The notes beneath the pieces are model-generated. The model had not been told where the DNA came from. It saw only the letters and a list, made by a program, of their open reading frames with translations, and did no database searches. DNA of 64,000 nucleotides, taken from positions 285,075 to 349,074 of the forward strand of contig QPGO01000083.1 of the NCBI GenBank assembly GCA_008632985.1, written 5' to 3'. Below are positions 2,530 to 60,964 of the stretch, piece after piece. A program made the translations under genes and the position numbers. Positions within the stretch are counted from its first letter, which is position 1. Each line of letters opens with the position of its first letter. The stretch comes from Psammoneis japonica (Eukaryota).

Positions 2530-2801
2530 GTCGTCCGGATGAAATAGACCACATTTGATTCATAGCTTTATAGTAAAAAGATATTGCTTCGTGATAAATT
2601 TGATATGCTGCAGAAATAGTCAACCATAGCTTATCTTAAACCCAGTGTTTCCAGTTTCTAATCAGGGTCTGGGAAGCACCATGAACACCAACGGCTTTAC
2701 CGAAAAAATGATGAGTTAATTACCAACGATGATTGGCTCTTTTTGTCTAAAACAAAACTGCCCCGGAGAGCAAGCTAGGCAGTTATCAAAAACTTTCAAC
2801 T

Positions 2802-10450: not shown

Positions 10451-11222
10451 TGGCTGTTTGCTGTCTGAAAACAAAGCTGCCCTGCACCATGACACCAGCC
10501 AACTTTTCAAAATTCAGCTCAACACAAACCACTCTCATTGCACAAATGCTGTGAACAGCTGTGCAAGCCCGTCTCAAAGCCTTTTGCAGTGTGTGGCACT
10601 TTGCAAACCTCTTTGCATGGACCCTTCCCCTCACATGTCCTCCAGTCTGAGCCTCTCTGCTTCCTCCTGCTGGGTGCCTGGGTCATTTCTTGACCCAGTT
10701 GTTCAGGGGAGACAAACACGTCGCATTCTTCGATGGTTGAAGTTGGAGCAGTTGCCATGGCATGGAGACGGGGAACGATGGCACACCAGGTGTTATGAGC
10801 AAGGCGCGGCAACAAACATTCAGCACTTCCAAAAAGATGAAAATCATCAGCAATAAGTTCAAACGCATGCTCTGTAGACTTTGCGTAGCCAGCATACGAC
10901 ACACAATGCTCATACAAATGCAGGTAGATCATTATTTTAAAATTTCATTACATAAAGAAACCCTAACGGTTTTTGTATCATACAAATAAGCAATCTAATT
11001 ATGCGTATGGTCAGCACTCAGTATTTTTTGTGTCATTCATTATCATATGTTACGTATATGTATGTGTATTAGACAAAACGCCTCCGCTTGTCGTGGCTCA
11101 CAAAAGAGGAAAAGGCGCTCCAAACATACCCGTACCGTGTACCGTCTTCGTTGTCGCCACATTGTATCTCTTCGATACCTCTTCTCCTTTCACCAACTTG
11201 AAACTTGCTCTGTTGCTGCAGA

Positions 11223-12339: not shown

Positions 12340-15300
12340 TTATTTAGATTCCGGTAGATTCCGATTCGGTTCGTTCTGTTGCGCGTAACCACTCCCATTG
12401 TGGCTACTGCTGCTACTAGTAGTGCCTTGCCCCTGCTGCCACGGGCCACCGTTATTGTAACCAGACATGGATTGGAGCCCCTGTCGAAACTTCATCCGAA
12501 AGGATTCTAGTTTCTCGTCTGATTCGGTGAGGGAGGACGCCGGGGCAGAACTCGGATCTTGTTGCGGTGTTCCAGACGCATACCGGTAGCCACCGCCTTG
12601 CTCGGGATTTCCCGCATACGGCTGATGCATTCCTCCGCCCACTCCGTACGGATAGTGGGAGTAGTACCCTTGCGAAGCGTGATGTTGCGGAGGAGGAGGA
12701 GGAGAATATCGGTGAGGTTGCTGTTGATGCGGAGGAGAAAATCGGTGAGGTTGCTGCTGATGCGGAGGTGGCGGAGAGTATCGGTGAGGATGCTGCTGAT
12801 GTGGTGGAGGAGGGGGGGAATGTCGTTGAGGATGCTGCGGAGGAGGCGGAGAATGACGAGGTGGATAGGATGCTGCGGTCGCTGGTTCGTGGTACTCGTA
12901 TTGTGGTTGTGGTGGTGCAGCATGGTAGTTGCTAGATGTCGCACTAGCCGCGGTAGCATGTGGTGACGCACGACCTGCACTTGGCATCATTTGCGACGAC
13001 TGCTGTGAAGGGGCGGAACCACCAACAAACCCATTCGCAAGAGTCGCAAGCGCTTCCAGTGCTTCGGTCCTCTTGTCAGACGGCTGTTGAGATGTTGCGG
13101 CAGGAGGAGGGGCTTGGCTGTAAGAGGGTGCAGCCGAAGCATGGTTGTAAGAGGGCGCAGCTGGAGCCTGACTGTATGAGCTGGCCACCGGAGCTCCACC
13201 ATAAGAAGGCGCTGCATTAACTTGGTTGTAGGGAGAGGCAGCTCGAGCTTCGCCGTATGAAGTGGTGTCTCGAGCTTGGTTGTACATAGGGGCGACAGGG
13301 GCTAGGCTGCTGCTCAACCACGTATCAGCCGGTTGCGCTGATTCAGAGTAAAATGGGTTGGCACGCTCCATCCTTTCATTCCTTGCTGTTTCTACAACCG
13401 ACGGACGCACTTCTTGAGCCTGTTCGCTCTGCGCCTCAATCAGCCTCTGCATCATTTCAGCACGTCGCTTTTCCTTGACTTGATGATCTTCTTGACGCCG
13501 TTCTTCTTGTACCTCTAGAATCTGTTTGGCTTCTTCTCGTTCAATCCGTTTTCGCTCTGCTTCCTCTCGTTTCCTTTGCTTCTCTTCCTCCAACTTCTTT
13601 TGACGTTTGGCTTCTCGTCTCTTTTGATCGGCGCGCCGTCTCTTTTCCGTACGAATCCGAATCTTTTCCGCCTTTTCTCGTTCTTCCTTTTCCTTTTGAG
13701 CACGGGCAATCGCCTCAAAGTCCACCGGTAATTCCCGCTTGCCGCACTTGTGCAGCACCATTCGTCCAAGACAAGCGTCACAAACATTGCTATCAAGTTC
13801 CACTGTATTGGAATCGTCTGCTATCGCGTTGGGCTTTTGCGCCACGTTCTTGGCGTCGTTTTCGACAGCCGGGGAAGCAGTATCCTTTTGCATTGCGGTA
13901 GAATCTGCCTCTGTTTCCTTTGTATTCGATGGAGCGTTTGAATTTTCCACCCCTGACACTTTCTGAGCCGCTAGAGAAGATGTCTCGTCCATTGAAACTT
14001 GAGAGGAAAGGGTGGCGGCTTCTTCCTTGGTTTCTTCCACCGACCCTGCAACAGCAGGTCCATTCGCCGTTGCTAAAGCAGCAGTAATACTAGCAGCCGC
14101 TGGTGCAACAACCTCCCCTGTAGCGCTTGTTTCCGTTGCCTTCACTGGCTCTCCCCCACTAGCAGCAGCAGATTCAGTCCCTCTTATAACGCTCATTGCC
14201 ACGGATACTCCTCCACTAGCTGCAAAAGTCGTAGAAACAACTGGATCACTCTCCCTTGCGGTTGCGGTCGTTTCCACTGGCATGGCTGGTTCTGCCCCAC
14301 GCTCTCTAGTACAAGCATCTGTCTCTCTTGGTACATTTGCGTCCACTCTTGGCAAGCTTGCTTCCATTGTCCCCCCACTGCTTGCTGCTGCTGCCGTTGT
14401 AGTAGCCCCATTTCTTCTTTCCCCTTGCTCAATCACATTGTCAGATGTTTCCTCTTCACCATTCTTCTTGATTTCCAATTCATCCCGTTTTATTTGCAAG
14501 TTTGATCCACGTCCCTTGGACCATGCTTGTCGTGCCATCATGTAGGATTGCAATTGGGGTACAAGACTTGCCTTCATGAGTGCTTCGAGATTGGCCGTAC
14601 GACCACGCTTGTTGCGGGAACCTCCTACTGGCCGTGTAGCAGCTGCTGCCGCAGCCGTGGGTTTCTTTCGATCGATAAAACAACGTTCCGTTTCGAGTGC
14701 ACGATCGACTTGGGGTAAAAGAGACAAGTAGTCTTGTGGAAAAACGTCATGTTGTGGTTGTTGTGCTGAAGCAGCATTCATTCCGCCACTCGCTGTAGCT
14801 GCAACCTTGCTCGTCTCGCTTTGTAACCGTTGCTTCAAGTAGGGTTCTGGATGACACGGCAAGTGCAGTAGTGCTTCTTCCGCTTGATCGTCATCGTCCA
14901 CAACTTGGACAATGGTTGCATTCAATTCTTCGAGTCGTTGCTGTTCTTCAACACTTTTTCGTAACGCCAAGGCCAATTCTTCATCCACAACTTCTTCTTC
15001 TTCTTCTACTTGTTGTTCTTGTAACACGACATGATCGACAACCACGGCATCGACTTCATCTTCGTCTTCTACATAAACCAAATTATCCGAAATGACTTGA
15101 TATCCCGGTGGATACATGATACCCGGCCATTCACTTTTAAGGGTAGACACCATTTGAACACACTGACCCTGTTGTGTCGTCAATAACAACCGTTCGTTTC
15201 TATATAAAACACAAGTAATCCCGTCTGGGGTGGGTCCCGCCAAGAGAAAGGCCGTATGCTTACCATCGGATGGAGCATCCCACATGTGCAATGTATTCTT

Positions 15301-16938
15301 GTATTCGACGGGTTGTCGAAAGGCATTGGGAACACCCACCACCAAGACATTTTGTAAATTTTCATCCTCCTCTTGATTCATGGATTGTTTCTTCTCGTCA
15401 CGATATACCAATTCATCCTCTCGAATTGTCATGTTGTTTTGTTGTTGTTGCGCAATGAAAAAACAATCTTGCCAAACAACCGAATGTCCATGCAAGGAAA
15501 TTGTTTCACCATAGACACGCAAGAGTGAAAGGGAGGACGTTTCAAACAGTCGTAATCCACGGGTCGATGCCACCAAGGTATAATTGCCTCGTGGTGATTG
15601 CGAAAGGGCTTGTGTCGATACGGTCTTGGTACCATTGACACGAAGAGGAATGGGTGCACGTTGTTGAACCACCATGGTTTGCAAATCCACCAAGAGCAAT
15701 TCTTGTGATGGAACTGCAACAGAATCATTCGTAGTATCATCATACAACAGCGTCACCATGAGGAATCGTTTCTCATTGGACTTATCCCACATGGCGGCGC
15801 ATTTCGGACCCAGCTTGATTGGTTTCTTCTCCTTTGCATCTAATGGCACAACTTGCATGGACTCTACTGATTTTTCGTTTGTAGTCTTTAAAAGGACCAA
15901 CGGATTCAATGTAGATGTCGCACCATGACAAAAACTTGCCAGACAACCTGATGATGATTTGGGATGCAAATCCATCCGTGTCGCGGGTCCTTCTTCATGC
16001 ATCAAGGTGTGTGTCCATACAATTGTATTTTGAACTACATCAATCATTTCCACCTCCGACTTGGTTGAAAGACACACTTTAGTACCACACAAACACAAAC
16101 TGACAATGGCATTTGGATGTTGGGACGCAATCGTTTTGTACGATTTCAAATCCGGTACACGAATGCCGTATTTTGTTGTTGTCTTTTTGTTTTTGGAAAT
16201 CTTGCACAATTCGACAAACTCCCGTGTCGAAGCACTCGTGGATAATAGAGAAATGGGTAATGGCATGGGAGCATCCAATGAATACACGGAAACAAATCCC
16301 GCCGTATCACCCAAGAGTAAATGATGATCCGACGCCGTGCTGCATGTCACAGCACGAGATACCAACGACGCGTCGGGTTTTAATGTTTTTTCGGAATCAT
16401 AATCCAATGGATGGTAAACATCCTGGACTGGAATGGACGTCCACTTCGGTTTCGGTGCTTGTCGTGGAGTTCCCAAACCACGGCCAAACGCAAGTGACGT
16501 GGAGGGATTTCGTTTCAAGCGTTGCAACAGTGATTGAGAAGAAGACTTGTCAAGCATGGGAAACATGGGTGCTACCGATACGGCGTGGGGCAATACATGA
16601 TCGACTTGTGGTTCCGGAGAGTCTGGTGGTACTGCAGCTTGTTCTGGACTGGTACTCGAAGCAGCAAAACTCAGAGGACGTTTGCGACGACGACGGCCGC
16701 CCCGTGGTGTCGTCGCGGATGATGATGCAGCGAGAGATTCAGATTCTTCTTCATGACTTGCTTGTTCTCCTTTTTTCTTTTTCGTAGTAAACGTCGATGG
16801 ATTCGAATCGGTATAATGTTGCACCGGCTTGCGATGACGACGGCGGCTGTAGTTGCTGCTGTTGGTGCCCACCATGGTGGTGTGTTGTGACTCTTGTTTT
16901 TTCATGTGGCTGTCAAATGCGCAAGTGGAATGGACCAA
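12340..16938 (-). CDS. Large protein with WD40-like region resembling RBBP5/Swd1, UIM-like motif, CxxC-H-C knuckle, coiled coil and H/P/Q-rich tail
   Basis: 1532-aa ORF. The beta-propeller-like N-half ends in EWPGIMYPPGYQVISDNLVYVEDEDEVD (similar to the RBBP5 WSAFAPDF..ENVEYEE motif, from memory). Also EELALALRKSVEE (UIM-like), CDACLGRMVLHKC and HRYSPPP repeats. Confidence 0.6.
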   Translation of the reverse strand: MVHSTCAFDSHMKKQESQHTTMVGTNSSNYSRRRHRKPVQHYTDSNPSTFTTKKKKGEQASHEEESESLAASSSATTPRGGRRRRKRPLSFAASSTSPEQAAVPPDSPEPQVDHVLPHAVSVAPMFPMLDKSSSQSLLQRLKRNPSTSLAFGRGLGTPRQAPKPKWTSIPVQDVYHPLDYDSEKTLKPDASLVSRAVTCSTASDHHLLLGDTAGFVSVYSLDAPMPLPISLLSTSASTREFVELCKISKNKKTTTKYGIRVPDLKSYKTIASQHPNAIVSLCLCGTKVCLSTKSEVEMIDVVQNTIVWTHTLMHEEGPATRMDLHPKSSSGCLASFCHGATSTLNPLVLLKTTNEKSVESMQVVPLDAKEKKPIKLGPKCAAMWDKSNEKRFLMVTLLYDDTTNDSVAVPSQELLLVDLQTMVVQQRAPIPLRVNGTKTVSTQALSQSPRGNYTLVASTRGLRLFETSSLSLLRVYGETISLHGHSVVWQDCFFIAQQQQNNMTIREDELVYRDEKKQSMNQEEDENLQNVLVVGVPNAFRQPVEYKNTLHMWDAPSDGKHTAFLLAGPTPDGITCVLYRNERLLLTTQQGQCVQMVSTLKSEWPGIMYPPGYQVISDNLVYVEDEDEVDAVVVDHVVLQEQQVEEEEEVVDEELALALRKSVEEQQRLEELNATIVQVVDDDDQAEEALLHLPCHPEPYLKQRLQSETSKVAATASGGMNAASAQQPQHDVFPQDYLSLLPQVDRALETERCFIDRKKPTAAAAAATRPVGGSRNKRGRTANLEALMKASLVPQLQSYMMARQAWSKGRGSNLQIKRDELEIKKNGEEETSDNVIEQGERRNGATTTAAAASSGGTMEASLPRVDANVPRETDACTRERGAEPAMPVETTATARESDPVVSTTFAASGGVSVAMSVIRGTESAAASGGEPVKATETSATGEVVAPAAASITAALATANGPAVAGSVEETKEEAATLSSQVSMDETSSLAAQKVSGVENSNAPSNTKETEADSTAMQKDTASPAVENDAKNVAQKPNAIADDSNTVELDSNVCDACLGRMVLHKCGKRELPVDFEAIARAQKEKEEREKAEKIRIRTEKRRRADQKRREAKRQKKLEEEKQRKREEAERKRIEREEAKQILEVQEERRQEDHQVKEKRRAEMMQRLIEAQSEQAQEVRPSVVETARNERMERANPFYSESAQPADTWLSSSLAPVAPMYNQARDTTSYGEARAASPYNQVNAAPSYGGAPVASSYSQAPAAPSYNHASAAPSYSQAPPPAATSQQPSDKRTEALEALATLANGFVGGSAPSQQSSQMMPSAGRASPHATAASATSSNYHAAPPQPQYEYHEPATAASYPPRHSPPPPQHPQRHSPPPPPHQQHPHRYSPPPPHQQQPHRFSPPHQQQPHRYSPPPPPQHHASQGYYSHYPYGVGGGMHQPYAGNPEQGGGYRYASGTPQQDPSSAPASSLTESDEKLESFRMKFRQGLQSMSGYNNGGPWQQGQGTTSSSSSHNGSGYAQQNEPNRNLPESK

Positions 16939-17121
16939 TCAGAATTGAGATACGTAGAATTGTACGTGCACAGTACTAGCCATGCTGGCGTGGCCAATGC
17001 TGTTCTCGATTTTCGCGGGCGCGATTTTATTTTTTGTGCGTGACGGACACCGTCTGTCCATCTCAACGTTCCTCATCGCCAACGTGCACGTCCGTCCTCT
17101 CACAAAACAAAAGAACCAACC

Positions 17122-18471
17122 ATGACGACACCGCAACAGCATCACCAAGACAACACGTACGAAGCCACTCGGGCTCGTCAATCGACTCATTCTCAACCTG
17201 ACAAGATTACATGGACTCAATCATCAGCTTTTCGAGACAATCCGTATCGGTTGTTGCACCATCAAAAGGGTTTGATTGGAAAATTTCGCATTCAATTGCT
17301 CGAAGCTGCTGAACTCAAACGTTCGTATTGGAGCGCTCTTGCACTGGGACCCGTGAAACATTTGGGTTTGTCAAAAGCACATGGACCCATTTCGAGTTTT
17401 GCGCAGTTTGGATTGGCGTTTGAAGAAAATGAAGTCAAGGAAAGCATTGCCGATTTGAATCAAAAGAAGCGAGCAAAACCGAGAATTGTGGGATGGACTC
17501 CTCAGAGCGATGTGGTACATTCACCGGTGATTTCCCAAAATGACAATCCCGTATGGCAATCGTGTGAGTTTGAATTGCCACTCCGCAAGGGAAGTATGCC
17601 ACGCGATGGAATGCCAATATTACTTCAGGTGCGCATGGATGAGGATGTGAGTGCGGCCGAAAACGTAATTCCTGTCGGAGTGCCGTCTCCCGATGAGCGT
17701 TTGTTGGGAACGGGATCACTTGATATTTCATCGCTTTGTCTAGGAACGACTCTAGATGGCAGCCCACAAGTCAGTGTCATGGAAGCATGGATCCCACTGG
17801 AATTGAAAAAGAATGTAGACGAGGATGGCATCATGGCTGCCCTCTATGAACACGATCCCAAGGCGGCTGCACTTCGAGAGGCTGAAAAACAACAACGAGA
17901 GCAAGAAGAATCCTGTATAAAAGGTCGTGTCCGAGTACTGGTTTCTTATACTCCATATGGACTAGAGCCTCGTCATAATGATTGGGTCGCCATGGAGGCC
18001 TTTGCTCGGCGATCGCCTACGCACAATGGCATGACTCCCCTCGTACCTCCCATGTCGCCATTTCGCGTCATGGATGTTTGTGGTTCTCATTTATTGCTAG
18101 AGTACACGTTGCCAAAGTCTGGTAGGAAAGCTACAATGCGACTACACCGGAATGCCGTGTTTGTGATTGAACGCCAAAATGTGGTGGATGGTGTCGTCAA
18201 TCTTGCAATGCTTCCGACCGACATTTGGATGTCTACCGGCATTGGTCAATCGACGGCACGCGTTACGGCGCCCGTGGTTTCTGCCGTGGGTGAACTCGTT
18301 ACACCTGCGGTTTTGACTTGTCGCATCATTGTCAATGTGATCAAAACAACAGCCTTGGCGGGTCTTTCGGGTGTCTCGGCCGCAACCGGTGCCGCCGTGG
18401 CTGCAGCCACCCATGCCGACGAACGGCGACAACACCAAGCGGGATTTGTACGACAAGAGCGGTTTGTGTAG
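17122..18471 (+). CDS. C2-domain-like protein, copy B (449 aa)
   Basis: Intact ORF differing from copy A at 5 residues seen (V/I, Q/H, D/G, Q/Y, L/M). Head-to-head with the 1532-aa gene, 183 bp apart. Confidence 0.75.
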   Translation: MTTPQQHHQDNTYEATRARQSTHSQPDKITWTQSSAFRDNPYRLLHHQKGLIGKFRIQLLEAAELKRSYWSALALGPVKHLGLSKAHGPISSFAQFGLAFEENEVKESIADLNQKKRAKPRIVGWTPQSDVVHSPVISQNDNPVWQSCEFELPLRKGSMPRDGMPILLQVRMDEDVSAAENVIPVGVPSPDERLLGTGSLDISSLCLGTTLDGSPQVSVMEAWIPLELKKNVDEDGIMAALYEHDPKAAALREAEKQQREQEESCIKGRVRVLVSYTPYGLEPRHNDWVAMEAFARRSPTHNGMTPLVPPMSPFRVMDVCGSHLLLEYTLPKSGRKATMRLHRNAVFVIERQNVVDGVVNLAMLPTDIWMSTGIGQSTARVTAPVVSAVGELVTPAVLTCRIIVNVIKTTALAGLSGVSAATGAAVAAATHADERRQHQAGFVRQERFV

Positions 18472-18626
18472 TTTTGAAAGTTTTTGATAACTGCCTAGCT
18501 TGCGCTCCGGGGCAGTTTTGTTTTAGACAAAAAGAGCCAACCATCGTCGTTATTAACTCATCATTTTTCGGTAAGGCCGTTGGTGTTCATGTTGCCAAAC
18601 CTTGATTAGAACCGGAATCATTGTAT

Positions 18627-19200
18627 TTAAGCGCCTTGTTGTATTGTGGGTGAGGTGAATTTGGCCCCGTCCTGCAGACGCGCAAAGAGCAAATCGACCG
18701 CCACGCCTTCAATGGTAAATTTAATAACGGGCGTATACGCGGCCGGAATGGGATGCAGGTCCGTCACGCAACCATGTTGTTCCAACAGCTGTACCAGTGA
18801 CGAGGAAAAGTCACTCCGCGTCTTAATGGGGAGGGCGCCGCAGAGCGAGCAAATCCAGGTCGGCGTAAGGACCGTGTACGCCCAATCGGTATGTATAATA
18901 GGAACAAAAGGATATCAGAGCCACTCGTGGCCGTTGCCATTATTTGTTGAAAACCTGATTGTTATTGGTTGTTGTTTTTTGGCTTGATGGAAGCGGCCCA
19001 TCCCATTGGTAAAGAATTCGCTCGAGAGATTGGAGAGCAAGCTTGCGTTGATTAGCCCCTCCTGTGAATCGAACAGATCGAGAGAGACAAAGGTTTGTCT
19101 CAATTCTTCCGATTGTTGAGGAACATTCTGTGTAGCACAAATGGGCCGAAGCGAGTGTTGCTCCGGATTGACCTGAGCTACGACCAGACTCCGTCTTTTA
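18627..19200 (-). pseudogene. Truncated, frameshifted poly(A) polymerase N-terminal fragment
   Basis: Minus-strand fragments LDLFDSQEG..RKLALQSLERILYQW, YRLGVHGPYADLDLLAL (~18841-18891), then in another frame DFSSSLVQLL..VTDLHPIPAAYTPVIKFTIEGVAVDLLFARL. These match the canonical PAP nucleotidyltransferase core. Confidence 0.75.
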
Positions 19201-20304: not shown

Positions 20305-20619
20305 CTTGTGATGTGAATGGAGCAATGTTTTCAGACTGAAGAATGCACCAGTTGCAGTTGGCAGTTGGCATCCGAAAGTGAAAAGTGAAGTTCAGTCGGC
20401 AGTGATAAAATTTGGAGTGAAGTACATGTACTGTAATCACGTAGAAATGTTCGTATTTTTTCTAGTACTGTACTGCACGGTGCTAATCTCAGCGACATAG
20501 TATCGTAGAAATATGTTCTTTGTACCAGAAGCATATATCTATGAATAATATATTGCGCTGGCAGCGCTGCCGACAGATTTCTCTTTTTTCCCACACTTCA
20601 CCGTGACGAAAAAAATGGT

Positions 20620-22130
20620 GAGTCGCCGTTGCTTTCGACGATGTCGTTTGCCAGAAGTGATGAGTACGAGTGTGATGTTTTGACAAATTATTGCTAATCA
20701 ACGTCAATACTAACGATATTGCTAAAAACATCACACTCGTACTCACCAGGAGACCGTTTTTGGACGATGCTACTGTTGGCACCGCTGCAAAGCAAAATGG
20801 TACGTGCAGCTGCTGTTGATGATATAGTTTGCCGAAAATAATACGTATGAGGACTATGTTTTGATGAAACATTGGCGTTCAATGTCAATACTAAATACAC
20901 ATGTAAAAACATCGCTCTCGTATTATTCAGGAGACCGTTTTGTGACGACCCTGCTGTTGGCTGTTGACACCGCGGCAAAAGTTTCAGCATGTTCCCTCGG
21001 CGAGTCAAAAGTTAGGAATACTCGTTGCTTATTCACTTTGGCTATCACAGTCAGCTCTCGCGCTGTCTTATAGATATATAGGAATGGAAAAAGGTGTTCA
21101 CGAAGCGCATTGCCATTTGGTGGTGGCTTTGATGCGCCCAGACCAGTCCATCTCGTCGTTTTTCAGCATGTTCCCTCCACCGAGTCAACAGGTAAGAACA
21201 CTCGTAGTGCTTTCACTTTAGCTCATGTAGTCATCTCTCATATTGTCTAATACATTTAGAGGCCCTCTGATGGTCTGTCCCGTCTCTTCCGTTCGCCGTC
21301 GGCAGTTTTCGGAAGGTTCGCTACTTCAGTGCGTCATTCCTGTTGCTCTCTTTGTACCTAATTAGCTTAACATTTGCTGTGAATGACATGTCAACAATCT
21401 ATAAAAAATAACTGTGTTGCACTAGGTTTAGAAGTTCTTCAGACAGTAGGAGTGACTAGCCACCCCCTGACCTTGACGACCAAGTGCGCCCAAAAATGCC
21501 AAGTTCCGGCCTCTCCTTGCGCCACCAAGGTCGCAAATTGTAATAAGTCAAACATTTATCTCGTCATAACAATCCAAAACAATGTTGGATGCACTGTCAC
21601 AATATTCTACACCGTTCCTAGCCCCACAAGCGACCGGCAACTGCCGACCGAGGACCAAAGCTCGAAACAAAAATGTTGTGTTCCGGCCTCTTATTGCACC
21701 ACCAAGACCGCATATTGAAATGACTCAAGCACATATCTCGTCATGACGACCCAAAGCAACACTCGATGCCCTGTTACAGGTTTCTTAATCGTTTCTAGCC
21801 CCACAAGCAACCGGCAACTAGCGACCGGAGAAAACAAAAAGCCGCGCCATGTCCATCAAAATGCTAAAGAAACACAAAACCTTTAGAAGACGCTAACAAA
21901 ACAACAACACCATCATACTCTTCGTATTCGAATTACCTTGTACCAATGCTATTGACGCCAGAACATCGTCCCACTGAAGTCCGATTTATGAATAGAGCGA
22001 AGTTGCGGAGAAAACAAAAAATCACCCTGTCCGTCTAAATGCCAAAGAAACACAAAACCTTTAGAAGATACCAACAAAAAACCAGCTCCATCATACTCAT
22101 TATATTCGAATTACCTTGCATCAATGCTCT
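20620..22130. repeat. Four successive imperfect tandem dimers with periods of about 181, 179, 177 and 178 bp
   Basis: Anchor pairs: caggagaccgtttt 20747/20928; cagcatgttccctc 20985/21164; ctagccccacaagc 21618/21795; aaagaaacacaaaacctttagaaga 21866/22044. Confidence 0.8.
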
Positions 22131-22370
22131 TAACCCTGTTATATTTTCCCAGTGACGGTGTATTCATGAACGCCGTGCCGCCATGGTGTTTTATTCTCGC
22201 CTTTTTCGCGAGTCCAGACACTCTTTGAGGTTATGGGCTTAAACCATACTGTGTCGCTTCGCGCGTAGAAAAAAAGCACCGTGACTGAAATTCTTAAAAT
22301 CAGAACCGCTACCAACTTTTATGTTGTAAAAAGTTAATGAATATCCCTGCTTATTATTTACGAGCTCGAA

Positions 22371-22680
22371 TTTGCACAGACATGCTCCAGAGCGTATCTT
22401 TGCGTTTACGTAGCTTTTGTACCAGTCGCATTGTAGAGTGATGTTATTCGCCTGCCCAACGAACTCTTTCTCGTACATAAAATATTTCTCACGCCTGCCG
22501 GATAGGTTGGAGGTTCATTTTCCTGGTACTGTACAGTCACGTAGAATTTAACGCAGCTGCACAGATGGTCTCTGGAGACCATCTGTGCAGGATAGTGCAC
22601 AGAGATGGTCTCTGGAGACCATCTGTGCATGAGACCCTGTCCAAACACTGTCATACGTGTGATCACACCTGACGTCATAG
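22371..22680. repeat. Dispersed repeat end with two tandem near-perfect hairpins (probable non-autonomous DNA element terminus)
   Basis: ctgcacagatggtctc-tg-gagaccatctgtgcag at 22557-22590 (16-bp arms) and a variant at 22596-22629. Homologous to 1-250, and 22632-22670 recurs inverted at ~28245-28282. Confidence 0.7.
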
Positions 22681-22892
22681 CGCCTAAAATGAGCCTCTTC
22701 GAAAAAATTGGTGGTCACCAGCCCTGTGCATGACGCAATTTTGGGCCACACCAACTTTCATGAGGATGTTTGTTCTCGCCAGAACAGACTTCCTCTGAAA
22801 CATCATGCCCCAAACATCATGCCCCACCGACAAAACACGAAAACAACTGACATGCATCATTTTTTGATGTGGCCAAAGCTCACGTGGCTGTG

Positions 22893-25800
22893 TGCCCGTG
22901 CATCTGTCGAGTCCTCCACCCTGCTCACGCACCTCACCACCGCACGTCTTGGTGATGGCACTTGGAAAGGTCCGACCCACTGGTTCATCCTTCATTGGCA
23001 AGATCAGCTGTGCAAGTGCGAGGCACTCATCCCGGCCAGTGACCACTTCTCTGAAGGACAGAAGCACGTCATGCTCGAGAATGCCGCACACCCTGTCGAG
23101 GAACTCCGTGCTGTCAAGAACCAAGCTGATCAGCATCGTGCGCAGAGTGGCAAGAGCCTCACATGCGATCAATGCTGTGGCTTGCTCCTCTCCGCGGCAG
23201 CTCAATGCGACAGCACGTTTCAACCCAAGACGACACCTCGAGCTCCCCGACGTGCCACATGCGCACACGACGTCTGCTCCGAGGAACCGTCCGACGATGT
23301 GTTCTACAACATTGACAGTGACATTGACGTCCTTCAGGCCAATGCTGCCTGCACCCGTGGTCCCAGCCTCACCGGTGACCAATGGAAACGTCTCCCTCCC
23401 GACTGCCAATGGATTTGGGATTCGTTGCCCCATTCCTCCAAGGCAATCATCCTTGAGCATTCTCGTCCGCCTCACCGTAACCCGTGAGACAGCAACTGCC
23501 ATGAGTCCATTGCGGCCAACCTTCACGACCAACGCCTTGGGAGTGACGGTGATGTCAACTTGTCCAACACGACTCCTGCTGACTCTGGTGACCCCGCTCC
23601 GAATGTGGGTGCCACTTCGGACAATCCCATCCTGGCGCACCTCACCAAGCGCAAGCCACTGCCACCCGGTGATCTGCGACGTCTGTTGTCTCCTAACCAA
23701 GCCCCCAACGCTGGACGACCGGGGCCATCCGCCGCTCCCTCTACTCCGCCAGCTCCTGCCGATGACATGGAACTCAACGGCCGCACTTGCCGCCGCGTTG
23801 ACAACCACAATGTCATTTGCTCTGCCTCTGCTCATCGCTCCACACGCACTGGTGCTCTAGTCGATCGTGGGGCCAATGGCGGCATTGCTGGCGACAACGT
23901 TCGCGTCATTGCATGCGCCTCTCGCCAAGTCAACGTTCAGGGCATTGACGACCATCAATTGGTGGACATCCCTGTTGTCACCGCTGGTGCCGTCATTGAG
24001 ACCCAGCGTGGTCCCGTCATCGCCATCCTCCATCAGTGCGCACACACGGGCAAGGGCAAGACCATCCATTCCTGCGGCCAGCTCGAATGGTGCAAACAGG
24101 ATGTCAATGATCGCTCTGTCAAGGTGCCCAACGGCTTGCAACGCATTGCCACTCCTGATGGCTGTGTCATCCCCATTGACATCAAGGGCGGCCTGCCTCA
24201 TGTTGCCATGCGACCTTACACTGATGCCGAATGGGACACCCTGCCCCATGTCATCCTCACCGGTGATGACACATGGGATCCTTCCATCCTCGATCACTCT
24301 GTCACTGACGACGACCAGTGGTGCGACGCGATCTCTGACCCACAGGACGATCCCACTGCCAACCTGTTTGACGAATGCGGCAACTGCCGTCATCGTGTCA
24401 TTGTCAACGAGACCATCATGTCCGCTTCCTTGTCTGCCGATCACGCGTCCGCCCTCGATGATCACCTCATTCCGAACGACGACATGTTCTGCGAGTGTCA
24501 TCTGCACGCGATTGACCCCAAGGACGACAACGTTCCACCCCCGGAGCGCACTGTGCAGCCCAAGGACCCCCCCTTCGAGTCTCTTTGGCCTCACTTTGGC
24601 TTCCCACCTGCCGATGCGGTCCGTCGTACTTTTGACTGCACCACGCAGTGTGCCCGCATGCCCGCCGGCACACACCTTAGGAAGGCCTGCAAATCACCCA
24701 ACCCCGCCCTTGATGTGCACTGCCGCAACGAGCCTGTCGCCACTGACACCATTCATGCCGACACCCCGGCCGTCGACTCTGGTTGCACCAGCGCCCAACT
24801 GTTTGTTGGCACCGAGTCTACCGTCACTGACGTCTGCGGCACCAAGACGGACAAAGAGTTTGTCAACACACTCGAGGATCAGATCCGTGAGCGTGGTGCC
24901 CCATCCAAACTCATTGGCGACCGTGCTCAAGTTGAGATCAGCAACAAAGTGCTCGGGATCCTACGAGCCCTCTTCATCTCCAGCTGGCAAAGTGAGCCTC
25001 ACCAGCAACACCAAAACTTTGCCGAGCGTCGACACCAGACCGTGAAGCGCATGGCGAACACTGTCATGGATCGTTTTGGTTCGCCCGCCCACACATGGCT
25101 GCTGGCGCTCATGTGTGTGTGCTTCACACTCAACCACACAGCATCCCCACGTCTCCACTGGCGCACGCCCCTCGAGACTCTCACTGGCTCCACCCCGGAC
25201 ATCAGCCCATTGCTTCGCTTTCACTGGTGGGAACCCGTGCACTTCCACCTCGATGACTCCGATTGGCCACCCGAATCCCGTGAGTTGCGTGGACGCTTCG
25301 TTGGCATTGCTGAGCACATCGGCCACCAGATGACCTTCAAGATTCTCTCTGACGAGACTCAGAAGATCCTCTGCCGGTCCAACGTACGCTCCGCTGCCAC
25401 CGATCCTGCCGTTCGAAACCTGCGTCTTGATCCTCCTGATGGGGAGCCACCTGAACCCATCATCAAATCTCGCCATGACGACAACCCCGTCGATTCTCCT
25501 GATGGGGAGATCAGGACACCCAAGATGCCAGTTTTCGATCTGCAAGACATCATCGGACGCACCTTCCTCATGCAGCCACAAGAGGACGGACAACGCCACA
25601 GAGCTCGCATCGTCAAGGCCGTCGAAGACCACGAATGGAAAGTGAACGGCAATCCCGAGCTTGCAAGTTCGTCTGCTCTGTCAACAACGACAAATGCGAG
25701 GAAGTCCTTGCCTGCAACGACATCATGAATCACATTGAGCAAGAAGACGAAGACACTGCTGTTTGGAAATTCCGACTCATCGTGTCACACGAAGGACCTC

Positions 25801-28059
25801 TGAAGCCTCATGACCCAACCTGGAAAGGCTCAAGCTACAACATCATGCTTGAATGGGAAAGTGGGGAGATCACGTCCGAGCCTCTTGCCATCATTGCCAA
25901 GGACGACCCCGTCACCTGCGCCATCCATGCACGAGAGAACGGACTTCTCGACACGGATGGCTGGAAGCGGTTCCGCACCATCGCGAGGTGCCAAAAGAAG
26001 CTATTTCGCATGGCCAACCAAGCCAAGCTTTGCTCCTTCCGCACTGCACCTCGCTGCAAGTGCGGATGCGAAGTTCCCCGGAACTGCAAACACGCCATGT
26101 CACTGGACGAGCGCAACGGCAACCGCAAATGGGGAGACGCAACTAATCTCGAGATGGACCAACTCAAGGAATACGAAGTCTTCCATGACTGCGGGCCCTT
26201 CGAGTCTTCCACTCCTCCTGCGGGACACAAGAAGATCCGAGTGCACCTGGTGTGCGATGTGAAACACGACGGTCGCCACAAGGCACGACTCGTAGCCGAT
26301 GGGCACCTCACGGACGCACCTGTCGACAGTGTCTGCTCCGGAGCAGTCTCCCTCCGTGGCCTTCGGCTGATGATTTTCCTGGCCGAACTCAACGAGTTGG
26401 AGACATGGGCCACCGACATTGGCAATGCCCATCTTGAAGCCACCACCAAGGAGAAGCTCTACATTGTAGCCGGACCCGAATTTGGCAAACTCGAAGGACA
26501 CATCCTTGTCATCCACAAGGCCCTGCATGGACTGCGCAGCTCCGGTCTCCGCTGGCACGAGCGCTTCGCTGACTGCCTGCGAGCTGAAGGCTTCTTCCCC
26601 TGCCGCGCCGAACCCGACATTTGGATGCACAGGAACGGCGACCACTGTGAGTGCATTGCCGTTTATGTGGATGACCTTGCCATTGCTGTGAAGGACCCTC
26701 AATCTTTCGTCGATGCTCTCACGGAAAAGCACAAGTTCAAGCTCAAGGGTGCGGGACCCATTGAGTTCCATCTGGGTTGCGACTTTTCCCGGGATCCCGA
26801 CGGCACCTTGTGCCTGTCTCCGCGCAAGTACATCGAGCGCATGGTCAACAGCAGCACCCGACTGTTTGGGGAGAAACCTGCCACCAACGCCCTGTCACCT
26901 CTGGAGAAGGGTGACCACCCCGAACTGGACACTTCCGAACTGCTGGAGCCCGATGGCATTCACAAGTTCCAGTCCCTTGTTGGTTCACTCCAATGGGCAG
27001 TGTCTCTTGGTCGAATTGACATTGCCACGGCCGTCATGTCACTCTCTAGCTTCCGAGCTGCGCCCCGTCAAGGCCACTTGGATCATGCCAAACGCGTCTG
27101 TGGGTGCCTCTCCAGGATGCGACACGGCGCTCTCCGCGTTCGCACGGAAGAGCCCGACTGTTTGGATCTCCCTGCTCCGGCCTGTGAATGGATGCATTCC
27201 GTGTGCGGCGAAGCAGAAGAGATGATCCCGAAGGACGCTCCACCGCCCCTTGGCAAGTTCGTCACTGCCACCCACTACGTCGATGCAAACTTGCACCATT
27301 GCATGCTCACCGGACGCTCTGTCATGGGAATGCTCCACTTCCTCAACAAATTCCCGGCTGATTGGTTCTCTAAGAAGCAAGCCACCGTGGAGACTGCGAC
27401 CTGCGGGTCTGAATTTGTTGCCGCAAGGACTTGTGTCGAGCAGATCATCGACCTGCGCATCACCCTGCGCTGCCTTGGCGTCCCGATCCGTGATGTCAGT
27501 TACATGTTCGGTGACAACAAGTCAGTTGTAGACAGTGCCACCATCCCGCACTCCAAGTTACACAAGCGACACACCGCACTGTCGTTCCACCGTGTGCGTG
27601 AGGCAATCGCCTCTGGTTGCCTTGAGTTCCACTTCATCGAAGGCTCCCGCAACCCTGCTGACATTCTCAGCAAGCATTGGGGTTGCTCCCAAATCTGGGA
27701 CCTTCTCCGCCCCCTCATGTTCTGGAACTTCATTCCATCCGAAGTCGAATCTGTTTCTGTGACTCCTCAAGCAAACTGGGGAGTGACAGGATTTGAACAG
27801 GATTTAGGTGCGCGCGAAATGTCGCACGCTGTTTAGTTTGCCGCGCACAGTTTTGTGTGCTCCAGTTCCACGCGTTCGCGCGCGACGCAGTTTGCTTTCG
27901 AGCCACAAGGCTCACAAGAATGACAACAGCAGCCCGATTGCACCGACTCACACGTCTTTCGGCTCCTGCAACGGTCTCTGAGCGGAGACTCATCTGCCAT
28001 TTAGACAGCAGCAAGGAGTTGTTGTTTGAATTCTTGCCATTTGCCTTCAATTTCTGTCA
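22893..28059 (+). mobile_element. 5'-truncated Ty1/copia (CoDi-like) LTR retrotransposon, copy 1, inactivated
   Basis: gag remnant, protease (LVDRGANGG), integrase, RT (KARLVADGH, YVDDL) and RNase H (FGDNKSV, NPADILSK). CGA->TGA stop at 23485, 1-nt frameshift near 25660, PPT-like ggggag before the 3' LTR. Confidence 0.95.
27784..28059 (+). repeat. 3' LTR of copia copy 1 (276 bp, TG...CA)
   Basis: tgacagg...tttctgtca, reverse-complement homolog of the LTRs at 53691 and 60684. Confidence 0.95.
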
Positions 28060-31000
28060 ATGTCGTTCTCGTCGTGTTGTTGTCGCCTGGTTCATTCATG
28101 TTGCATCTGGCATTGCTTCGCGCACTGTGAGTTTGAATCATTCGATTGATGTCTGTGAGGTCGCACTGTCATGCGTGCGAATGTGTTTGGACAGAACATT
28201 GCGGGTGTGGCCTGTGACGTCATGATAAAAGCCTGTGTGACGTGGGCATGATCACACCTGTGACAGTGTTTGGACAGAGTCTAACCCCACTCCGCGCACT
28301 GTGTGCATGGCATGCTGTGCACAACATTTCAGAGGTGTTGCAAAACTTCCCCGAGACATTGCATTTCTGTGGACATGCCGAACCTTTCAGTGCACTCGAC
28401 AGTCGCAACAGGCTGCAAAGGACAGCTTCCGCCACAGGTCTTACATGGTTGTTTAATGCCACAGAAGTTGGTCAATTTTGGTGGGATTTTTTACGTAGAA
28501 TTCTACGTTGTGCACAGTGTGCCATGCACAAGGTCCGAGTCGCTCAAGTTCCATGCACCTGACTCAGCATGACATGCACAGCATTTGTTGACGTTGACTC
28601 AATGCTTGTTGCCATGTTTGATGGACAGCCTTTAATCTGGCAGCTTTCTTGTTCCAGTGACCTTGGAAGTGTGGTCACTTTTTGGCGAGGCCAGTGCGCA
28701 GCTTGTCTGCGAGAAGTTACACAAGCATTTTTCTACGTGGTTTCTACAAGAATCGTTGAATCTCATTGCACGTGTGCCACACCAACCGCTTAAAGTGGGT
28801 CAACAAGAACGTCAAAGGCGTCTGACATGTTTGACACAACAAGGTCTTTCCAGATTCTTCAAAGTGGTTGATCAATGGCATGACCAAAAGGCGCCAAAAA
28901 ATTGAGTTGTGCACAGCATGCTGTGCACATGCGCGATTTTGGCGAAAATGCGCAAAAATGTCTGTGCACAGCATGCCATGCACAATGCAAGCGGGGACAA
29001 GCAGGGGTGTCCCTGGTCCGCGCATCATTGCGCTTTTGTGCAACAGTGTGCAATTTTTGGGTCACAGTCATTTTGAGGTCATTCTCCATGCCATTGCAGC
29101 AAAGTGCAATGAGGATTGCATGTGCATGTGTGTCATCGGATGCCACATAAAAATGGCATTGGCATGTCAAATGCCTCATTCAGCATGAACATCAATGTTC
29201 AAACAATGGCGCTCAAAATGTCAACCCTGTGGAGTTCCACGTCAATTCCAGTGCAAACCGCGATGTGCTTTTCCGCAACGTGGCGATTTTCACAACCAAA
29301 AATGCATCCTCTTGCTGGTTGTCTTTACGAAAGCCACCTCAGGTTGTTTGACACTGTCAAACCACCAGACACAATCATTGAAGCCTGCTTTGGCCAGTTG
29401 GGTCAGGTCAGGTGTCAAATGACCGGCTTTGTCAATTGTTGGCAACAGCACAAAACCATGTTGTACTTTCGCGCAACGTGAATGCGCGGACCAGGGACAT
29501 GAGTTAGCCGGGGTTGGACTCTGCTGTAGCTCGTTGGTCGCGCACATTTTGAGAGTAATGAGTGATCAATTTACGGCATGCAGGAATGACCCACTCAGTG
29601 CATGTGGGGGGTGGGGGGCTGGCAAACTGAGCGGCAGCGAAGCAAGTCGTGAATTCGGCAACAAGGCCGCGTGAGTCTCCATTCCATTTGGGAGGTTCTA
29701 CAATCTTCCCGGTGAGAGCAGGAAGACCAGTGGATGCCAACTGTGAGAGGATTGCACAGCCATCACATCCATGGACGCAGCAAGTGTCTTCTTCCATCCC
29801 TCGCACAAACGGCGGTCCAGCAGCACGTCATCCTGAACAAGTTTCGAGCACATTTTCATGGAGAGTGCTCCTGCCAATGAGATGAGCCGATCATCACACT
29901 GTCACAGAAATCGTGCTGAGTGGGTCAGGGTGTGTCGGGTTTGTGCATGGGAGTGCCAGCTTGGGCAAAGCGAGTGTGCACAGCCTTCAGAAAAATGGCA
30001 ACATCAAAAGGTTCAAGGGAGTGGAGGTGCAGTCTGGGAGTCTTGCAGAAAGTTTTGGCATTGTGGTGCTTCTCTGATGCAGACGTGAACTTTCCTGCAA
30101 CAGAGAAGCCAGACAACATGTCTGGGAACGATGAGTGGGAGGAGAGCAGCCAGCAAGGCAATGCAATGGTTTCCAGGATCACAGTGATCTTCATGGCCAT
30201 CAGGGAATCCACAGGTGGGGATGAAATGTGGGGAAGGGCTGAAGAGTCTGGGGATGGAAGGGGGACCACGTTTGGCATCTCTGCACAAATGGCAGCAAAT
30301 TCCTTGTGTGTTCCTTTGACGGCATGACAAGCAGCATCTGAAACCTTCTCAGACACCAAAGCATGGGTGCTGGCATCATCAACTGATGCCCGGGGTGCAT
30401 TGAGCTGGGCCTTTGTAAGGAGTTGAGCAGAATTGTTGAGAACTGGCCAGCAGCATTGCGATGCAGGGTGCAACTTTTTCCCTGAATTTTGCTCTGGGAC
30501 AATTTTGTTTGTCAAAAAAAGCTCATCATTTTGGCAAGACCATTGGCACACATGTTGCTTGGCTTGAAGCTCGTCCATGGTTGACCATTTCTGCAGCGAA
30601 TCAAATTTGTCACAAAGCACTGTCTGGCACTGTAAAGCAATGAGTCAATCTGTGCAATTTCATCCGGACGACTCATTGGTGCTTCCGTTTCTTGCTTGAG
30701 CACTGCTGTGGAGAGCCAGGCATGGCAGCAGCACAGTCAGGCACTGCACAATTGACCAGAGAAGGATCAGCAAGCAACAATTCTAGAATCGTGTTGACAT
30801 CCGATGTCTCACCCAGAGCCGCAAATGCAAATGGTGGGTGCAAGCCCTCATGCTTCAATGCCAAGGACTCTGGAAATGCTTTGACAAGATGTTTGATCCC
30901 TCCATCCCAAACCTTCCCACACGCAATGGCACAATGGATGGGAAGCTTGCCGCAATTGTTGCAGAGGCTTTTCTCAACTGTCATCTGTCAATGAGAGGTG

Positions 31001-32290
31001 AGTTGTGCAGGCTTTGCCAATGTCCCAGCTGCAGCAGGATCTGTGCAAAAGCAGCTGCAGCTGAGCATCCAGACCCAGAGTTTTCACTCAAGCAAGGAGC
31101 AGCAGCAAGTGCACTGGTGCACTTTGTTGTGTGCCAGCTCTCTTTGGGAGTGCCTTGAAAAAAAAACAGGGCCCAACATCAACAATCAAATTGACTGCTT
31201 TTAACCTGTGATTGCTTTGAACAATCTTGCCAGCTCAGGACAACTGCCTGTTGATGAAAAATTTCTGCCACCCCCTTGTTTCTCAATGCCGCCCTCTTCT
31301 CCAACACATGAAGCAGGCTGGCGGGTGTCTCCATCATCAGCCCAGATGGGGTTTGTGCAGCAAGTGAAGCAGCTTGTGTGGAACAAAGTGATTTGCAACA
31401 TCCCTCTTAGATGGCTTGCTTTTGAGTGCAATGAGATGTGAGCTGATGCTGGCTGTGACAGGAGGTGGGTGTGTCAGATGTCTGAGATGTTGTGAAAGAA
31501 ACATGCACGTCATGTGCATGCACACGCAGACTTGTTCCAGACTTGGGTGGCACGCACATGCCCCTTTTTGCACAAAAAAATAAAAGTTTTTGTGCTTTGT
31601 CAAACATCGCACACATTTCATTAAATTGACCACATGAGTGCTTGCAAGCAAAACAAACAGAATGAACTCGAACCAACAAACAGCCAAACTGGCCATGGCT
31701 TTCAGTGACCATGATGGCCCACTTTTTTCAGCCTTGTGGAAAATTGAATGTCATGACGAGGACCTCTGCATTTGACACAGTCTGTGGCATCAACAAAAAC
31801 AGTGAAAACGCTTGTTGCAGGCTGCAGCTTGGCACAATGATGCCAAATCTGTCAGCAACAACAATTGAGCCTCAATTCACTCAGCTGGTTCTTGCCAAAG
31901 TGGCTGTGTGCAGCTTGGCTGGGGCTCTGGCACACAGGATCTCTCCAGCTGCTGCTTGGAAAAAATCTTGTCTTGTTTGCCCCTCAACACCCAGCTCTGC
32001 AGAAAAGGTCTCGGTCTTGGCCTTCGTCTTGTGCCAGGCAAGAAGAGCAAAGTGCTCTGGCGTGTTGGCTCTCTCTGCTCCCTCCTCTTGTTGGACTCTG
32101 CCCCTGAACTTCAACCTAGCTCACCACACACCACGACGTGATGGGAGGCGTTGGGCAAATGATGCTGACGCTCATGTGACGACCGCTGCCTTAACAATGA
32201 CGTTGAACTGAGCTCGTCACCCCTCAGACACGTTGCGCATCATTGGAGGATCTTCGGACAAAATCCTTCGGCAAGTCATCGGAGGATCTT
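28060..32290. other. TpA-depleted hypermutated block of nested repeats and gene remnants
   Basis: Very few TA and reduced CG. A short, less-mutated island lies at ~29460-29660. Confidence 0.85.
30570..30975 (-). pseudogene. Hypermutated inverted copy of the 3' end and 3' flank of the ankyrin-like gene (2245-2630)
   Basis: LCNNCGKLPIHCAIACGKVWDGG..GLHP..TILELLLADPSLV vs LYNNRGELPIHCAIACGKVWDGG..GLYP..TILELLLADPSLV. The 3' UTR also aligns. Confidence 0.9.
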
Positions 32291-33290
32291 CTTTCAAAAA
32301 CAATGATCTGGTCGTGTAAAGCACGAATAAATGTCGGAGTTGCATGCATCGGAACTCCGAACGGTAGAAATGGCCACTCCGAATGCCGGAATCATAAGCC
32401 CAAAATAACGTTTCGTGCCAAAAAATCCGATTTCTACAGTATACCGATGTAGGAAATCATTGTACACATAATATGTATAGAGGATACTCCGAGTACGCCG
32501 GTCAGGCGAAATTTTGAAATGCTGATGTATGCTATATTCATGTGTTTTTTTGAAGTATCCAGTGCTGGCGCCAAAACATAGGCCGGCGTCATTTCCGTTG
32601 TCGTAATATTTTTACATACATAATTTTCTACACATTTCATCTACTACAACGGCATTTTCCTGGCCACTCCGCGTCTGGTACAAACGTCGTAGAGGCACCG
32701 ACGTTAGAAATTGTTTTGGCCACGCAACATCGATTTTAATACAGTAATGAAGCTAGTATATAATAATATTATGTGTTAGTTGTAACAGTCAAATTATTTT
32801 CGAAGTTGTACAGTCAGCCGCCACCGTTTCCCTCACACTTTTTCTTGCCGGAACTTGTCTGTTTAGCCATCGAATAAACGAGTAAGTTGTTGAACATGTG
32901 ATGGATATGATGACTGCAAAGGAGTGTTAGATGTTTTGAGGTGCTTCTGAGTGAGCGCTGGTTGCGAAAGCGTTGAGTTGATCGAGAACGAGCCTCATTC
33001 ATGTTGCTCGCGCGTGATGTGCTGGAGTTGATCGATGTAGTCATGATGAACAATGCCATCGAGGCGACTACTTGCCCTATGACCCTCTACTGCTGTTTGC
33101 GTCATCTTTAGGAGTGTTTGGTGTTGGTAGCATGTTGTGTTTGCCGTATTTTGATTTCTGTGAAACTGATCGTTGCTCACCAAACCCGTGAATTTTGACC
33201 GTTAATTTGTTACAGGTTCTCATTCGAACGATACTCTACCTACTCTCAGCCACAACTCTCATACTTCATAATCATCATACAGCCTTAACA

Positions 33291-42424: not shown

Positions 42425-42529
42425 AAGGTATTTCTATATTAAAAAAAGATGTCGAATGACCTGTGGCAAAAGTCAGTGTTATTTGCGCCGCTCTCCGATG
42501 TAGATAAAAAATCTTCAACACGTAAAAGT

Positions 42530-44060: not shown

Positions 44061-44409
44061 TGACAGCACTACAAGTCACAAAGCTCGTCAGTTCCGAGAT
44101 GCTGGAGATTCTGTTGTCATCCCCAAGGTAGAAGGAGGTATGTTTGTTCGCGAACAATCAAGTTGGCCGACGCGGTATGGGATCGAGGAGTCCAGCGAAA
44201 TCCTGACCAAGTGCACCGTCGGTGACAAAACAAAACCCAAATTCTATTTTTAAGGTGCTTCTACACTTCCGCCCCGCAACAAGTGCACCGTCGGTGACAA
44301 TTGGACCAACGCCGTCAAGACTCCAGTCTACAAGAATCCAAAGAACCCAAATGAAGGCTTTTCGAAGGATTTCACAAAAGCGGTCAAGACCGAATCCCGA
44401 GAAGTCAAC

Positions 44410-49675: not shown

Positions 49676-52928
<3,253 letters not shown>

Positions 52929-60959: not shown

Positions 60960-60964
60960 TCTTA

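Follow-up and report, generated by a model that had tools for sequence, protein, structure and literature searches.

TpA-to-TpG/CpA hypermutation in copies of an abundant copia-type retrotransposon from Psammoneis japonica

Described systems of dinucleotide hypermutation

The closest described counterpart of the pattern reported here comes from Bigelowiella natans. According to the available text of a recent preprint, two viral regions integrated in that genome acquired 231 single-nucleotide mutations, of which 230 were A-to-G or T-to-C changes at TpA; they arose de novo in asexual mutation-accumulation lines, at about 1000 times the background rate (Mettrop et al., bioRxiv 10.64898/2026.01.13.699255). 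The same text reports that reverse transcriptase and DDE transposase domains are over-represented among the low-TpA coding sequences of B. natans, and proposes adenine deamination in DNA, with an ADAT2-like candidate. Here we describe two copies of a Ty1/copia-type long terminal repeat (LTR) retrotransposon in which most TpA dinucleotides (TA in the counts below) have given way to TpG or CpA. They lie in a 64,000-nt stretch of Psammoneis japonica DNA (GenBank assembly GCA_008632985.1, contig QPGO01000083.1, positions 285,075 to 349,074 of the forward strand), which we call the window. In full-text literature searches only the B. natans preprint describes a TpA-to-TpG/CpA signature; term searches of the CoDi paper (PMC2806351) and of a 2025 diatom-transposon preprint, as far as their searchable text extends, returned no mention of such mutation.

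In its sequence, the present case shares the defining signature of the B. natans process. In both, as far as the preprint's available text describes it, A:T-to-G:C change is restricted to TpA and yields TpG or CpA, foreign or mobile domains are affected, and TA depletion is accompanied by enrichment of CA and TG. The settings are different. B. natans is a chlorarachniophyte and the DNA concerned is viral, whereas here the host is a stramenopile nearer the diatoms and the target a very high-copy LTR retrotransposon. Depletion is here near saturation, with an observed/expected ratio (o/e) for TA of 0.12–0.13 against the 0.45 given for the B. natans viral region, and, unlike what the preprint's text describes, one copy has spared LTRs and leader, and CpG decay accompanies TpA loss in the same domains. 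De novo mutations were observed in B. natans, whereas the present case is a historical record.

Other known processes share part of this behaviour. Fungal RIP (repeat-induced point mutation) is also a dinucleotide-specific transition hypermutation that inactivates transposon copies independently in the chromosome, but it converts CpA/TpG to TpA, raises AT content and creates stop codons, whereas here TpA is destroyed, GC content is raised and stops vanish. In place of the TpA excess and AT enrichment typical of RIP, the copies have the low TA o/e given above, raised GC and a polarity that points away from TA. RIP mutates any long duplicate, whereas a 1.5-kb inverted repeat pair in the window (2635–4162 and 17111–18631, 95% identical) shows nothing unusual in its mutation spectrum: 27 of its 63 mismatches are transversions, and its two members still have 39 TA in common. 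APOBEC3 and ADAR likewise inactivate retroelements by deamination-type transition hypermutation, and the A edited by ADAR is preferably one with U as its 5′ neighbour (quoted in the available text of bioRxiv 10.64898/2026.01.13.699255). Their signatures, however, are one-stranded (G-to-A or A-to-G, on cDNA or RNA), whereas here both strands of TpA are changed, with TG and CA outcomes both common, and sister LTRs have diverged, at 11 TA-derived bases. Decay of 5-methylcytosine at CpG also turns a self-complementary pyrimidine–purine step into TG or CA in silenced repeats, but the dinucleotide is another one and the base change is the opposite. Finally, 5-hydroxymethyluracil (5hmU) in dinoflagellates prefers TA and TC, and marks and silences transposons (PMC11572971). 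The available text of that paper describes no mutational consequence; the present host is not a dinoflagellate, and TC is not changed in excess. We considered TC as a second target here and rejected it, as the two copies differ at 17 TC/CC and 6 CT/TT sites, which with strands pooled is no clear excess.

Loss of TpA in the two copies

Copy 1 (22893–28059, plus strand) is a 5′-truncated element made up of interior and 3′ LTR, and copy 2 (53691–60959, minus strand) is a full-length element with TG...CA LTRs. They are 94–96% identical and align in two gapless blocks (22895–25661 and 25665–27445 in copy 1 coordinates), the gaps being one base and a duplication found in copy 2 only. Among 5167 aligned bases 292 differ, 264 of them by transitions. 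Pyrimidine–purine steps hold 220 of the 292 mismatched bases, leaving a divergence of 72/5167 bases (1.4%) for everything else. Within these steps, the copies share CG at 324 sites and TA at 20; CG stands opposite TG or CA at 89 sites and TA opposite TG or CA at 25, while at 53 sites (106 bases) one copy has TG and the other CA. A model of CpG loss only, taking the 324 shared CG and 89 single losses, predicts by hand arithmetic about 3 such discordant sites, against the 53 observed.

For polarity we used the family protein consensus as outgroup, which could be applied to 41 of the TG/CA discordant sites. The ancestral step was TA at 18 of these and CG at 2, with 21 undecidable; at sites with CG in one copy it was CG at 40, TA at 2 and another step at 1, with 36 undecidable. 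All of this concerns one 64-kb window, the contigs of one sample and few polarisable sites. The pattern of shared and discordant steps argues for two processes in these copies, a very fast conversion of TpA to TpG or CpA and a slower conversion of CpG to the same products. CpG loss comes to about 12% in copy 1 (50 of 413 sites) and 9% in copy 2 (39 of 413), and we estimate that TA would have been lost per site some 13–17 times faster. No strand-coordinated tracts were detected by a runs test (25 runs among the 53 discordant sites, 27.3 expected, P = 0.30), and no extended motif was found, the flanking base not predicting whether TG or CA resulted. Retained TA is enriched in CTA/TAG contexts (15 of 20 sites, against at most 17 of the 53 discordant ones; Fisher P = 0.0014, partly by hand count), and the effect of this context on retention is modest.

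The underlying event would be a transition from A:T to G:C that hits the A of TpA in either strand. As TpA reads the same on both strands, one activity changing its A to G would yield TpG and CpA alike. Tyrosine codons (TAY) would become Cys or His codons, and the stop codons TAA and TAG would be destroyed.

It was the tyrosines that first drew attention to these copies. The initial annotation had noted Cys in one copy and His in the other at positions where copia proteins have Tyr, and had taken this as a sign of TA loss. The nine peptide pairs it listed (copy 1/copy 2: EWCK/EWHK, GLPHV/GLPCV, RKACKSP/RKAHKSP, EPVHF/EPVCF, CGCEVP/CGHEVP, DSVCSG/DSVHSG, HWGCSQ/HWGHSQ, AIHARE/AIYARE, RPYT/RPCT) each occur once per copy at homologous coordinates. 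The altered motifs NAHL, KALHGL and ATCGSE are likewise found at homologous positions, ATCGSE occurring twice in copy 2 owing to a tandem duplication. With residues 640–1760 of the copy 2 protein as query, 1052 relatives were recovered at E ≤0.001 among 4708 candidates, of which the best 120 are 54–66% identical and mostly 1800–1950 amino acids (aa) long. The first 80 of these 120 homologs (P0002–P0081) went into an alignment with the two copies, made under fast settings and leaving the other 40 unused, and a column was scored as conserved where Tyr occurs in at least 80% of the 80. Such columns number 35 for copy 2, which has Cys at 19, His at 7 and Phe at 3 of them, and 36 for copy 1, which has Cys at 20, His at 7, Phe at 3 and Ser at 1. 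Cys and His together therefore account for 26/35 and 27/36 columns, whereas in the 80 homologs the mean over the same 36 columns is 0.4, the median 0 and the maximum 10; at the homolog background rate the binomial probability of 26/35 is about 1e-43. Counting Tyr-to-Cys/His changes against relatives thus bears out the earlier reading. Its proposed direction, loss of TA, also holds, because the relatives, in which Cys, His or Arg could have been found at these columns, have Tyr instead. The maximum of 10 belongs to an environmental homolog of 1888 aa (P0050), in which 6 of the 36 conserved Tyr are Cys and 4 are His; it is the only such relative among the 80. At 7 columns where Arg is conserved, copy 1 has Cys, His or Trp instead.

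The depletion is severe. Copy 1 contains 29 TA where 234 are expected (TA o/e 0.12) and the interior of copy 2 38 where 282 are expected (0.13), without a gradient along the interior (0.08–0.19 per kb). In 73 related metagenome elements TA o/e is 0.44–0.99 with a median of 0.69, although one of the two seed patterns used to collect them demanded an intact Tyr motif and so biased the set against mutated copies. If 0.69 is taken as the starting value, each copy would have lost about 80% of its TA. The GC content of the copies is 0.56–0.57, against 0.49 in the rest of the window. Many of the metagenome elements (L025, L056, L035, L008, L050 and others) have CG o/e of 0.05–0.25 with normal TA, and in the hosts of these only CpG decay acts on the copia family.

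The initial annotation had further held that such a process removes stop codons rather than creating them, leaving elements that look intact to open reading frame (ORF) finders. The evidence supports the first part. Over six frames, each copy has 45 stops per kb, whereas the 73 related loci have a median of 88 and no fewer than 55; TAA and TAG together number only 28 and 45 in the two copies, against 193 and 237 TGA. The low stop density explains why long ORFs crowd the region on either strand, and why the copy 2 frame stays open across a tandem duplication of 164 nt (54302–54624, minus strand) that shifts the reading frame. The second part is true of copy 2 in a limited sense. Its stop-to-stop frame of 1965 aa (P0001; 53964–59861, minus strand) is open, but the last ~170 residues are out of frame and no longer fit the family consensus. 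It does not hold for copy 1, which carries an in-frame TGA (23485–23487, plus strand) and, relative to copy 2, a frameshifting 1-nt deletion (25660–25665, plus strand). The stop arose by CpG decay of the CGA still present in copy 2, not by TA loss; CpG decay had gone unremarked in the initial annotation. At the deletion site, near 25662, most contigs of a public sequencing run have an extra T, and the deletion may be an assembly indel.

Both copies belong to a Ty1/copia-type LTR retrotransposon. Residues 1389–1600 of P0001 match RVT_2, the Pfam copia-type reverse transcriptase (E 7.5e-24, 85 bits, cut-off 31.6), which is the sole Pfam match of this protein; each of 5 homologs scanned likewise has this one match. 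Neither P0001 nor the 5 homologs gave an integrase or protease match in Pfam at E ≤0.1. Upstream of the reverse transcriptase, the family shows strong conservation. Membership of the CoDi group of diatom copia elements, the label used in the initial annotation, is plausible in view of a host close to the diatoms. The LTRs of copy 2 (5′ LTR 60684–60959, 3′ LTR 53691–53966, both minus strand) are 276 nt long and 96% identical, begin with TGACAGG and end with CTATCA. The element is flanked by a 5-bp target-site duplication, TAAGA (60960–60964 on the 5′ side, 53686–53690 on the 3′ side). Copy 1 lacks about 1.9 kb of the 5′ end, and its 3′ LTR (27784–28059, plus strand) is strongly TA-depleted, with three TA left (27805, 27834, 28002).

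Timing, domains and competing explanations

The two LTRs of one element are identical at integration. In copy 2 they now differ at 11 bases, all of them in TA-derived steps, with 20 of 20 CpG kept and no other change. The two units of the 164-nt duplication likewise have 3 mismatches, all in TA-derived steps. Since the LTRs start out identical and the copy 2 pair differs solely at such steps, action on integrated DNA is favoured, as it is by the internal duplication. It also means that ages derived from LTR divergence are badly inflated, as the 4% divergence of the copy 2 LTRs lies wholly at TA sites.

TA loss extends well beyond the copies, in blocks. Segments with TA o/e below 0.3 cover 32.3 of the 64 kb. 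Outside the copia copies these have CG o/e of 0.26–0.60 and CA and TG o/e of 1.5–1.8, and on inspection their sequence is complex and not made of simple repeats. They include relic domains at 3601–10900 (TA o/e 0.10, CG o/e 0.26), 42501–44700 (0.16 and 0.50), 47401–49400 (0.09 and 0.31) and 60965–64000 (0.10 and 0.45), the last flanking copy 2. An older relic at 28060–32400, depleted of both TA and CG, adjoins copy 1, and the copy 1 LTR is depleted along with its flanks as one low-TA domain of 9.8 kb. Within this relic, 30577–30968 is a mutated copy of 2243–2627, compared with which TA is gone from 11 of 13 sites and CG from 10 of 17, the reverse changes being almost absent. When the window is cut into 128 bins of 500 bp, 66 of them are normal for both dinucleotides and 29 depleted of both, while 31 are low only for TA and 2 only for CG; therefore TA was lost first and CpG later, in the same domains. 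Host genes, including a Ca-ATPase gene, and tandem repeats at 20600–22200 retain TA. TA loss is selective for certain repeats and domains, and host genes are spared.

For a view of other copies we compared 21001–31000 with the contigs of one public run (X1), in which 9661 contig records match. Summed word depth is 58,000–99,000 over the copia interior against 61 over 29685–30686; this depth is not a copy number, and we read it only as a sign of very many copies. Across contigs, 268 of 325 variable places are transitions. Among the 34 variants listed, 12 are places where copy 1 has TG or CA and at least 87% of the other copies have CG, and several TA-derived sites are split between CA and TG among copies, for instance about 52/48 or 75/25. 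Such splits fit independent mutation of each copy.

Taken together, it is quite probable that copies of this very abundant copia-type element were inactivated independently by a process converting TpA to TpG or CpA, most likely after integration and in delimited domains. The process would act on chromosomal DNA, in domains that are probably methylated or silenced; the same domains would lose CpG more slowly, and old relics would end without either TA or CG. One candidate chemistry is adenine deamination in DNA. Another would be oxidation of the T of TpA to 5hmU or 5-formyluracil (5fU), followed by mispairing with G; oxidised T mispairing with G could give T-to-C change. We infer an action in situ, an enzymatic basis of one or the other kind (DNA adenine deamination or T oxidation at TpA) and a role in genome defence.

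Several observations weigh against this interpretation. On the sense strand, gains of TG exceed gains of CA: over both copies Tyr became Cys 39 times and His 14 times, and TG o/e is 1.53–1.61 against a family median of 1.30, a rise of 0.23–0.31, while CA o/e is 1.31–1.32 against 1.21, a rise of about 0.10. Such a bias, which is moderate, would not be expected from a strand-blind process. An excess of A-to-G on the sense strand would, in turn, agree with a transcribed element whose non-template strand is attacked preferentially or repaired less well. Furthermore, the ends of copy 2 are less depleted than its interior. Between the 5′ LTR, in which TA is largely retained, and the hypermutated interior (53967–60200, minus strand, edges set from TA positions; CG o/e 0.89) lies a TA-dense, spared leader (60201–60683, minus strand), with 20 TA within 60218–60679 and TA o/e of 0.58–0.79. 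There are 11 TA in the 276 nt of the 3′ LTR and 30 in the 759 nt of 5′ LTR and leader, against 38 in the 6234 nt of the interior. The edge of depletion lies within tens of bases of the 3′ LTR, and CG o/e is 1.1–1.3 in LTRs and leader against 0.8–0.9 in the interior. This sparing is unexpected under a uniform in situ process and resembles edited replication intermediates. It would agree with a domain of chromatin, methylation or small RNA that has the coding region at its centre, and it can be accommodated by editing before integration as well. The Tyr columns of the two copies also agree (both Cys at 20, both His at 5) more often than they disagree (7). This is somewhat above independence, and some of the changes may have been inherited or be site-biased. 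Lastly, run X1 is possibly the assembly's own sample, and the contig comparison is then not independent.

The alternative that survives best, although we regard it as unlikely, is that an RNA- or cDNA-acting adenine deaminase, an analogue of ADAR or APOBEC, hits each replication intermediate, so that insertions arrive already hypermutated and only a slow residue of change follows in the chromosome. The spared LTRs and leader beside a saturated interior, the independent choice of TG or CA at 53 sites and the sense-strand A-to-G bias are all what it would predict. However, both strands are heavily changed, sense T-to-C making up roughly a quarter to a half of events, which is unlike one-strand editing of RNA or minus-strand cDNA. 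TA sites are the only places at which sister LTRs, and the units of the internal duplication, differ; no gradient runs through the depleted interior, and the copy 1 LTR is depleted as a single domain with adjoining flanks that are not copia sequence. Moreover, by the account in the preprint's available text, the same signature arises de novo in integrated DNA of B. natans.

A sequencing or assembly artefact, in which a base modification at TpA in silenced DNA is miscalled as TG or CA by a long-read basecaller, is very improbable. One flank piece is matched exactly by X1 contigs, which elsewhere show small indels relative to the assembly, and such indels do suggest long reads. A systematic miscall should, however, give the same letter in the same context, whereas the copies disagree between TG and CA at 53 sites. 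In addition, short X1 contigs reproduce the TA- and CG-free relic, one of 1464 nt matching 29468–30928 with 4 differences and 3 gaps, though the run may hold the assembly's own data. We give equally little credence to a non-enzymatic bias, be it GC-biased gene conversion among copies or selection against TA (UpA) in the element RNA. The elevated GC of the copies would agree with either, but the change is restricted to TpA with no general shift from A or T to G or C, and relatives are not TA-poor. Invariant Tyr of the catalytic domain is destroyed, so the changes were not selected for function, and the copies diverge at these sites, where gene conversion would have homogenised them. Least probable of all is that the Cys/His pairs go back to Arg CGC codons in which methylated CpG decayed, giving TGC in one copy and CAC in the other, since, for all the 89 CG/TG or CG/CA sites, the 7 altered Arg columns and the CGA-to-TGA stop of copy 1, homologs have Tyr and not Arg at these columns, the discordant sites outnumber the ~3 expected, and consensus polarity (TA 18, CG 2) refutes CpG decay as the origin of the Tyr-position changes.

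Host, neighbouring features and significance

The Ca-ATPase gene gives an indication of the host lineage. The best named matches of its P-type Ca-ATPase ORF (49744–51951) are oomycetes at 64–65% and diatoms at 61–63% identity, and no B. natans protein is found among the best 120 matches. In a quick tree, the window protein and one other sequence are sister to a clade of all 7 named diatoms (support 0.98), with oomycetes outside; the named taxa comprise only oomycetes, diatoms and one animal, so this placement is coarse. Protein-atlas matches of the ATPase added no taxonomic information. A dinoflagellate host was considered and rejected, since a spliced-leader fragment had a single hit with 2 mismatches, no more than chance would give, and the ATPase tree groups the host with stramenopiles. 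The gene, of the SERCA type, is split into overlapping ORFs in different frames (49744–51951 and 51942–52928); the frameshift may be genuine, or the assembly may be wrong by 1 nt here.

Several other features of the window may be recorded. The inverted repeat pair at 2635–4162 and 17111–18631 brackets about 13 kb that include a TA- and CG-free relic and an ORF of 1532 aa (12340–16938, minus strand), which matches no Pfam family and has weak protein-atlas leads only (at most 0.81). Within the bracketed relic, the plus strand of 6001–8000 is very G-rich (GC skew 0.47), with CA o/e of 2.1–2.3 against 1.6 for TG. The tandem repeats at 20600–22200 form three blocks with periods of 164–181 nt, 71–78% identical and normal in TA. 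Just upstream of the truncation point of copy 1, at 22555–22630, there are two near-perfect palindromes of ~30 nt in tandem (gcacagatggtctctggagaccatctgtgca), and the 207 bases at 22686–22892 are TA-free though outside the copia alignment. The low-TA segments 1–1400 and 42501–44700 overlap the starts of long ORFs without a known family (769–2529 and 44254–45774). Some of the long ORFs in the window may be by-products of stop-codon depletion and not genes.

Targeted hypermutation of transposons in the chromosome is barely documented outside fungi, and a second, distant host would show that the system known from B. natans is broader. As a tentative and somewhat less than even proposition, TpA-to-TpG/CpA hypermutation may be a widespread genome defence of the SAR group (stramenopiles, alveolates and Rhizaria), acting on chromosomal DNA and recruited to silenced, methylated domains, which here would have erased TA from roughly a thousand copies of the copia element and from half of the 64-kb window. 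The strand bias and the sparing of LTRs and leader would then suggest that transcription or small RNA guides the enzyme, be it a DNA adenine deaminase or a thymine oxidase, and P0050 would hint at further hosts. Where stop codons have been lost in this way, software for ORF finding or gene prediction can be expected to report long spurious genes in all six reading frames. An abundant retrotransposon saturated with these changes, together with CpG decay in the same domains, could serve as a natural system in which to hunt for the enzyme responsible, whether a DNA adenine editor or a T-oxidation pathway.

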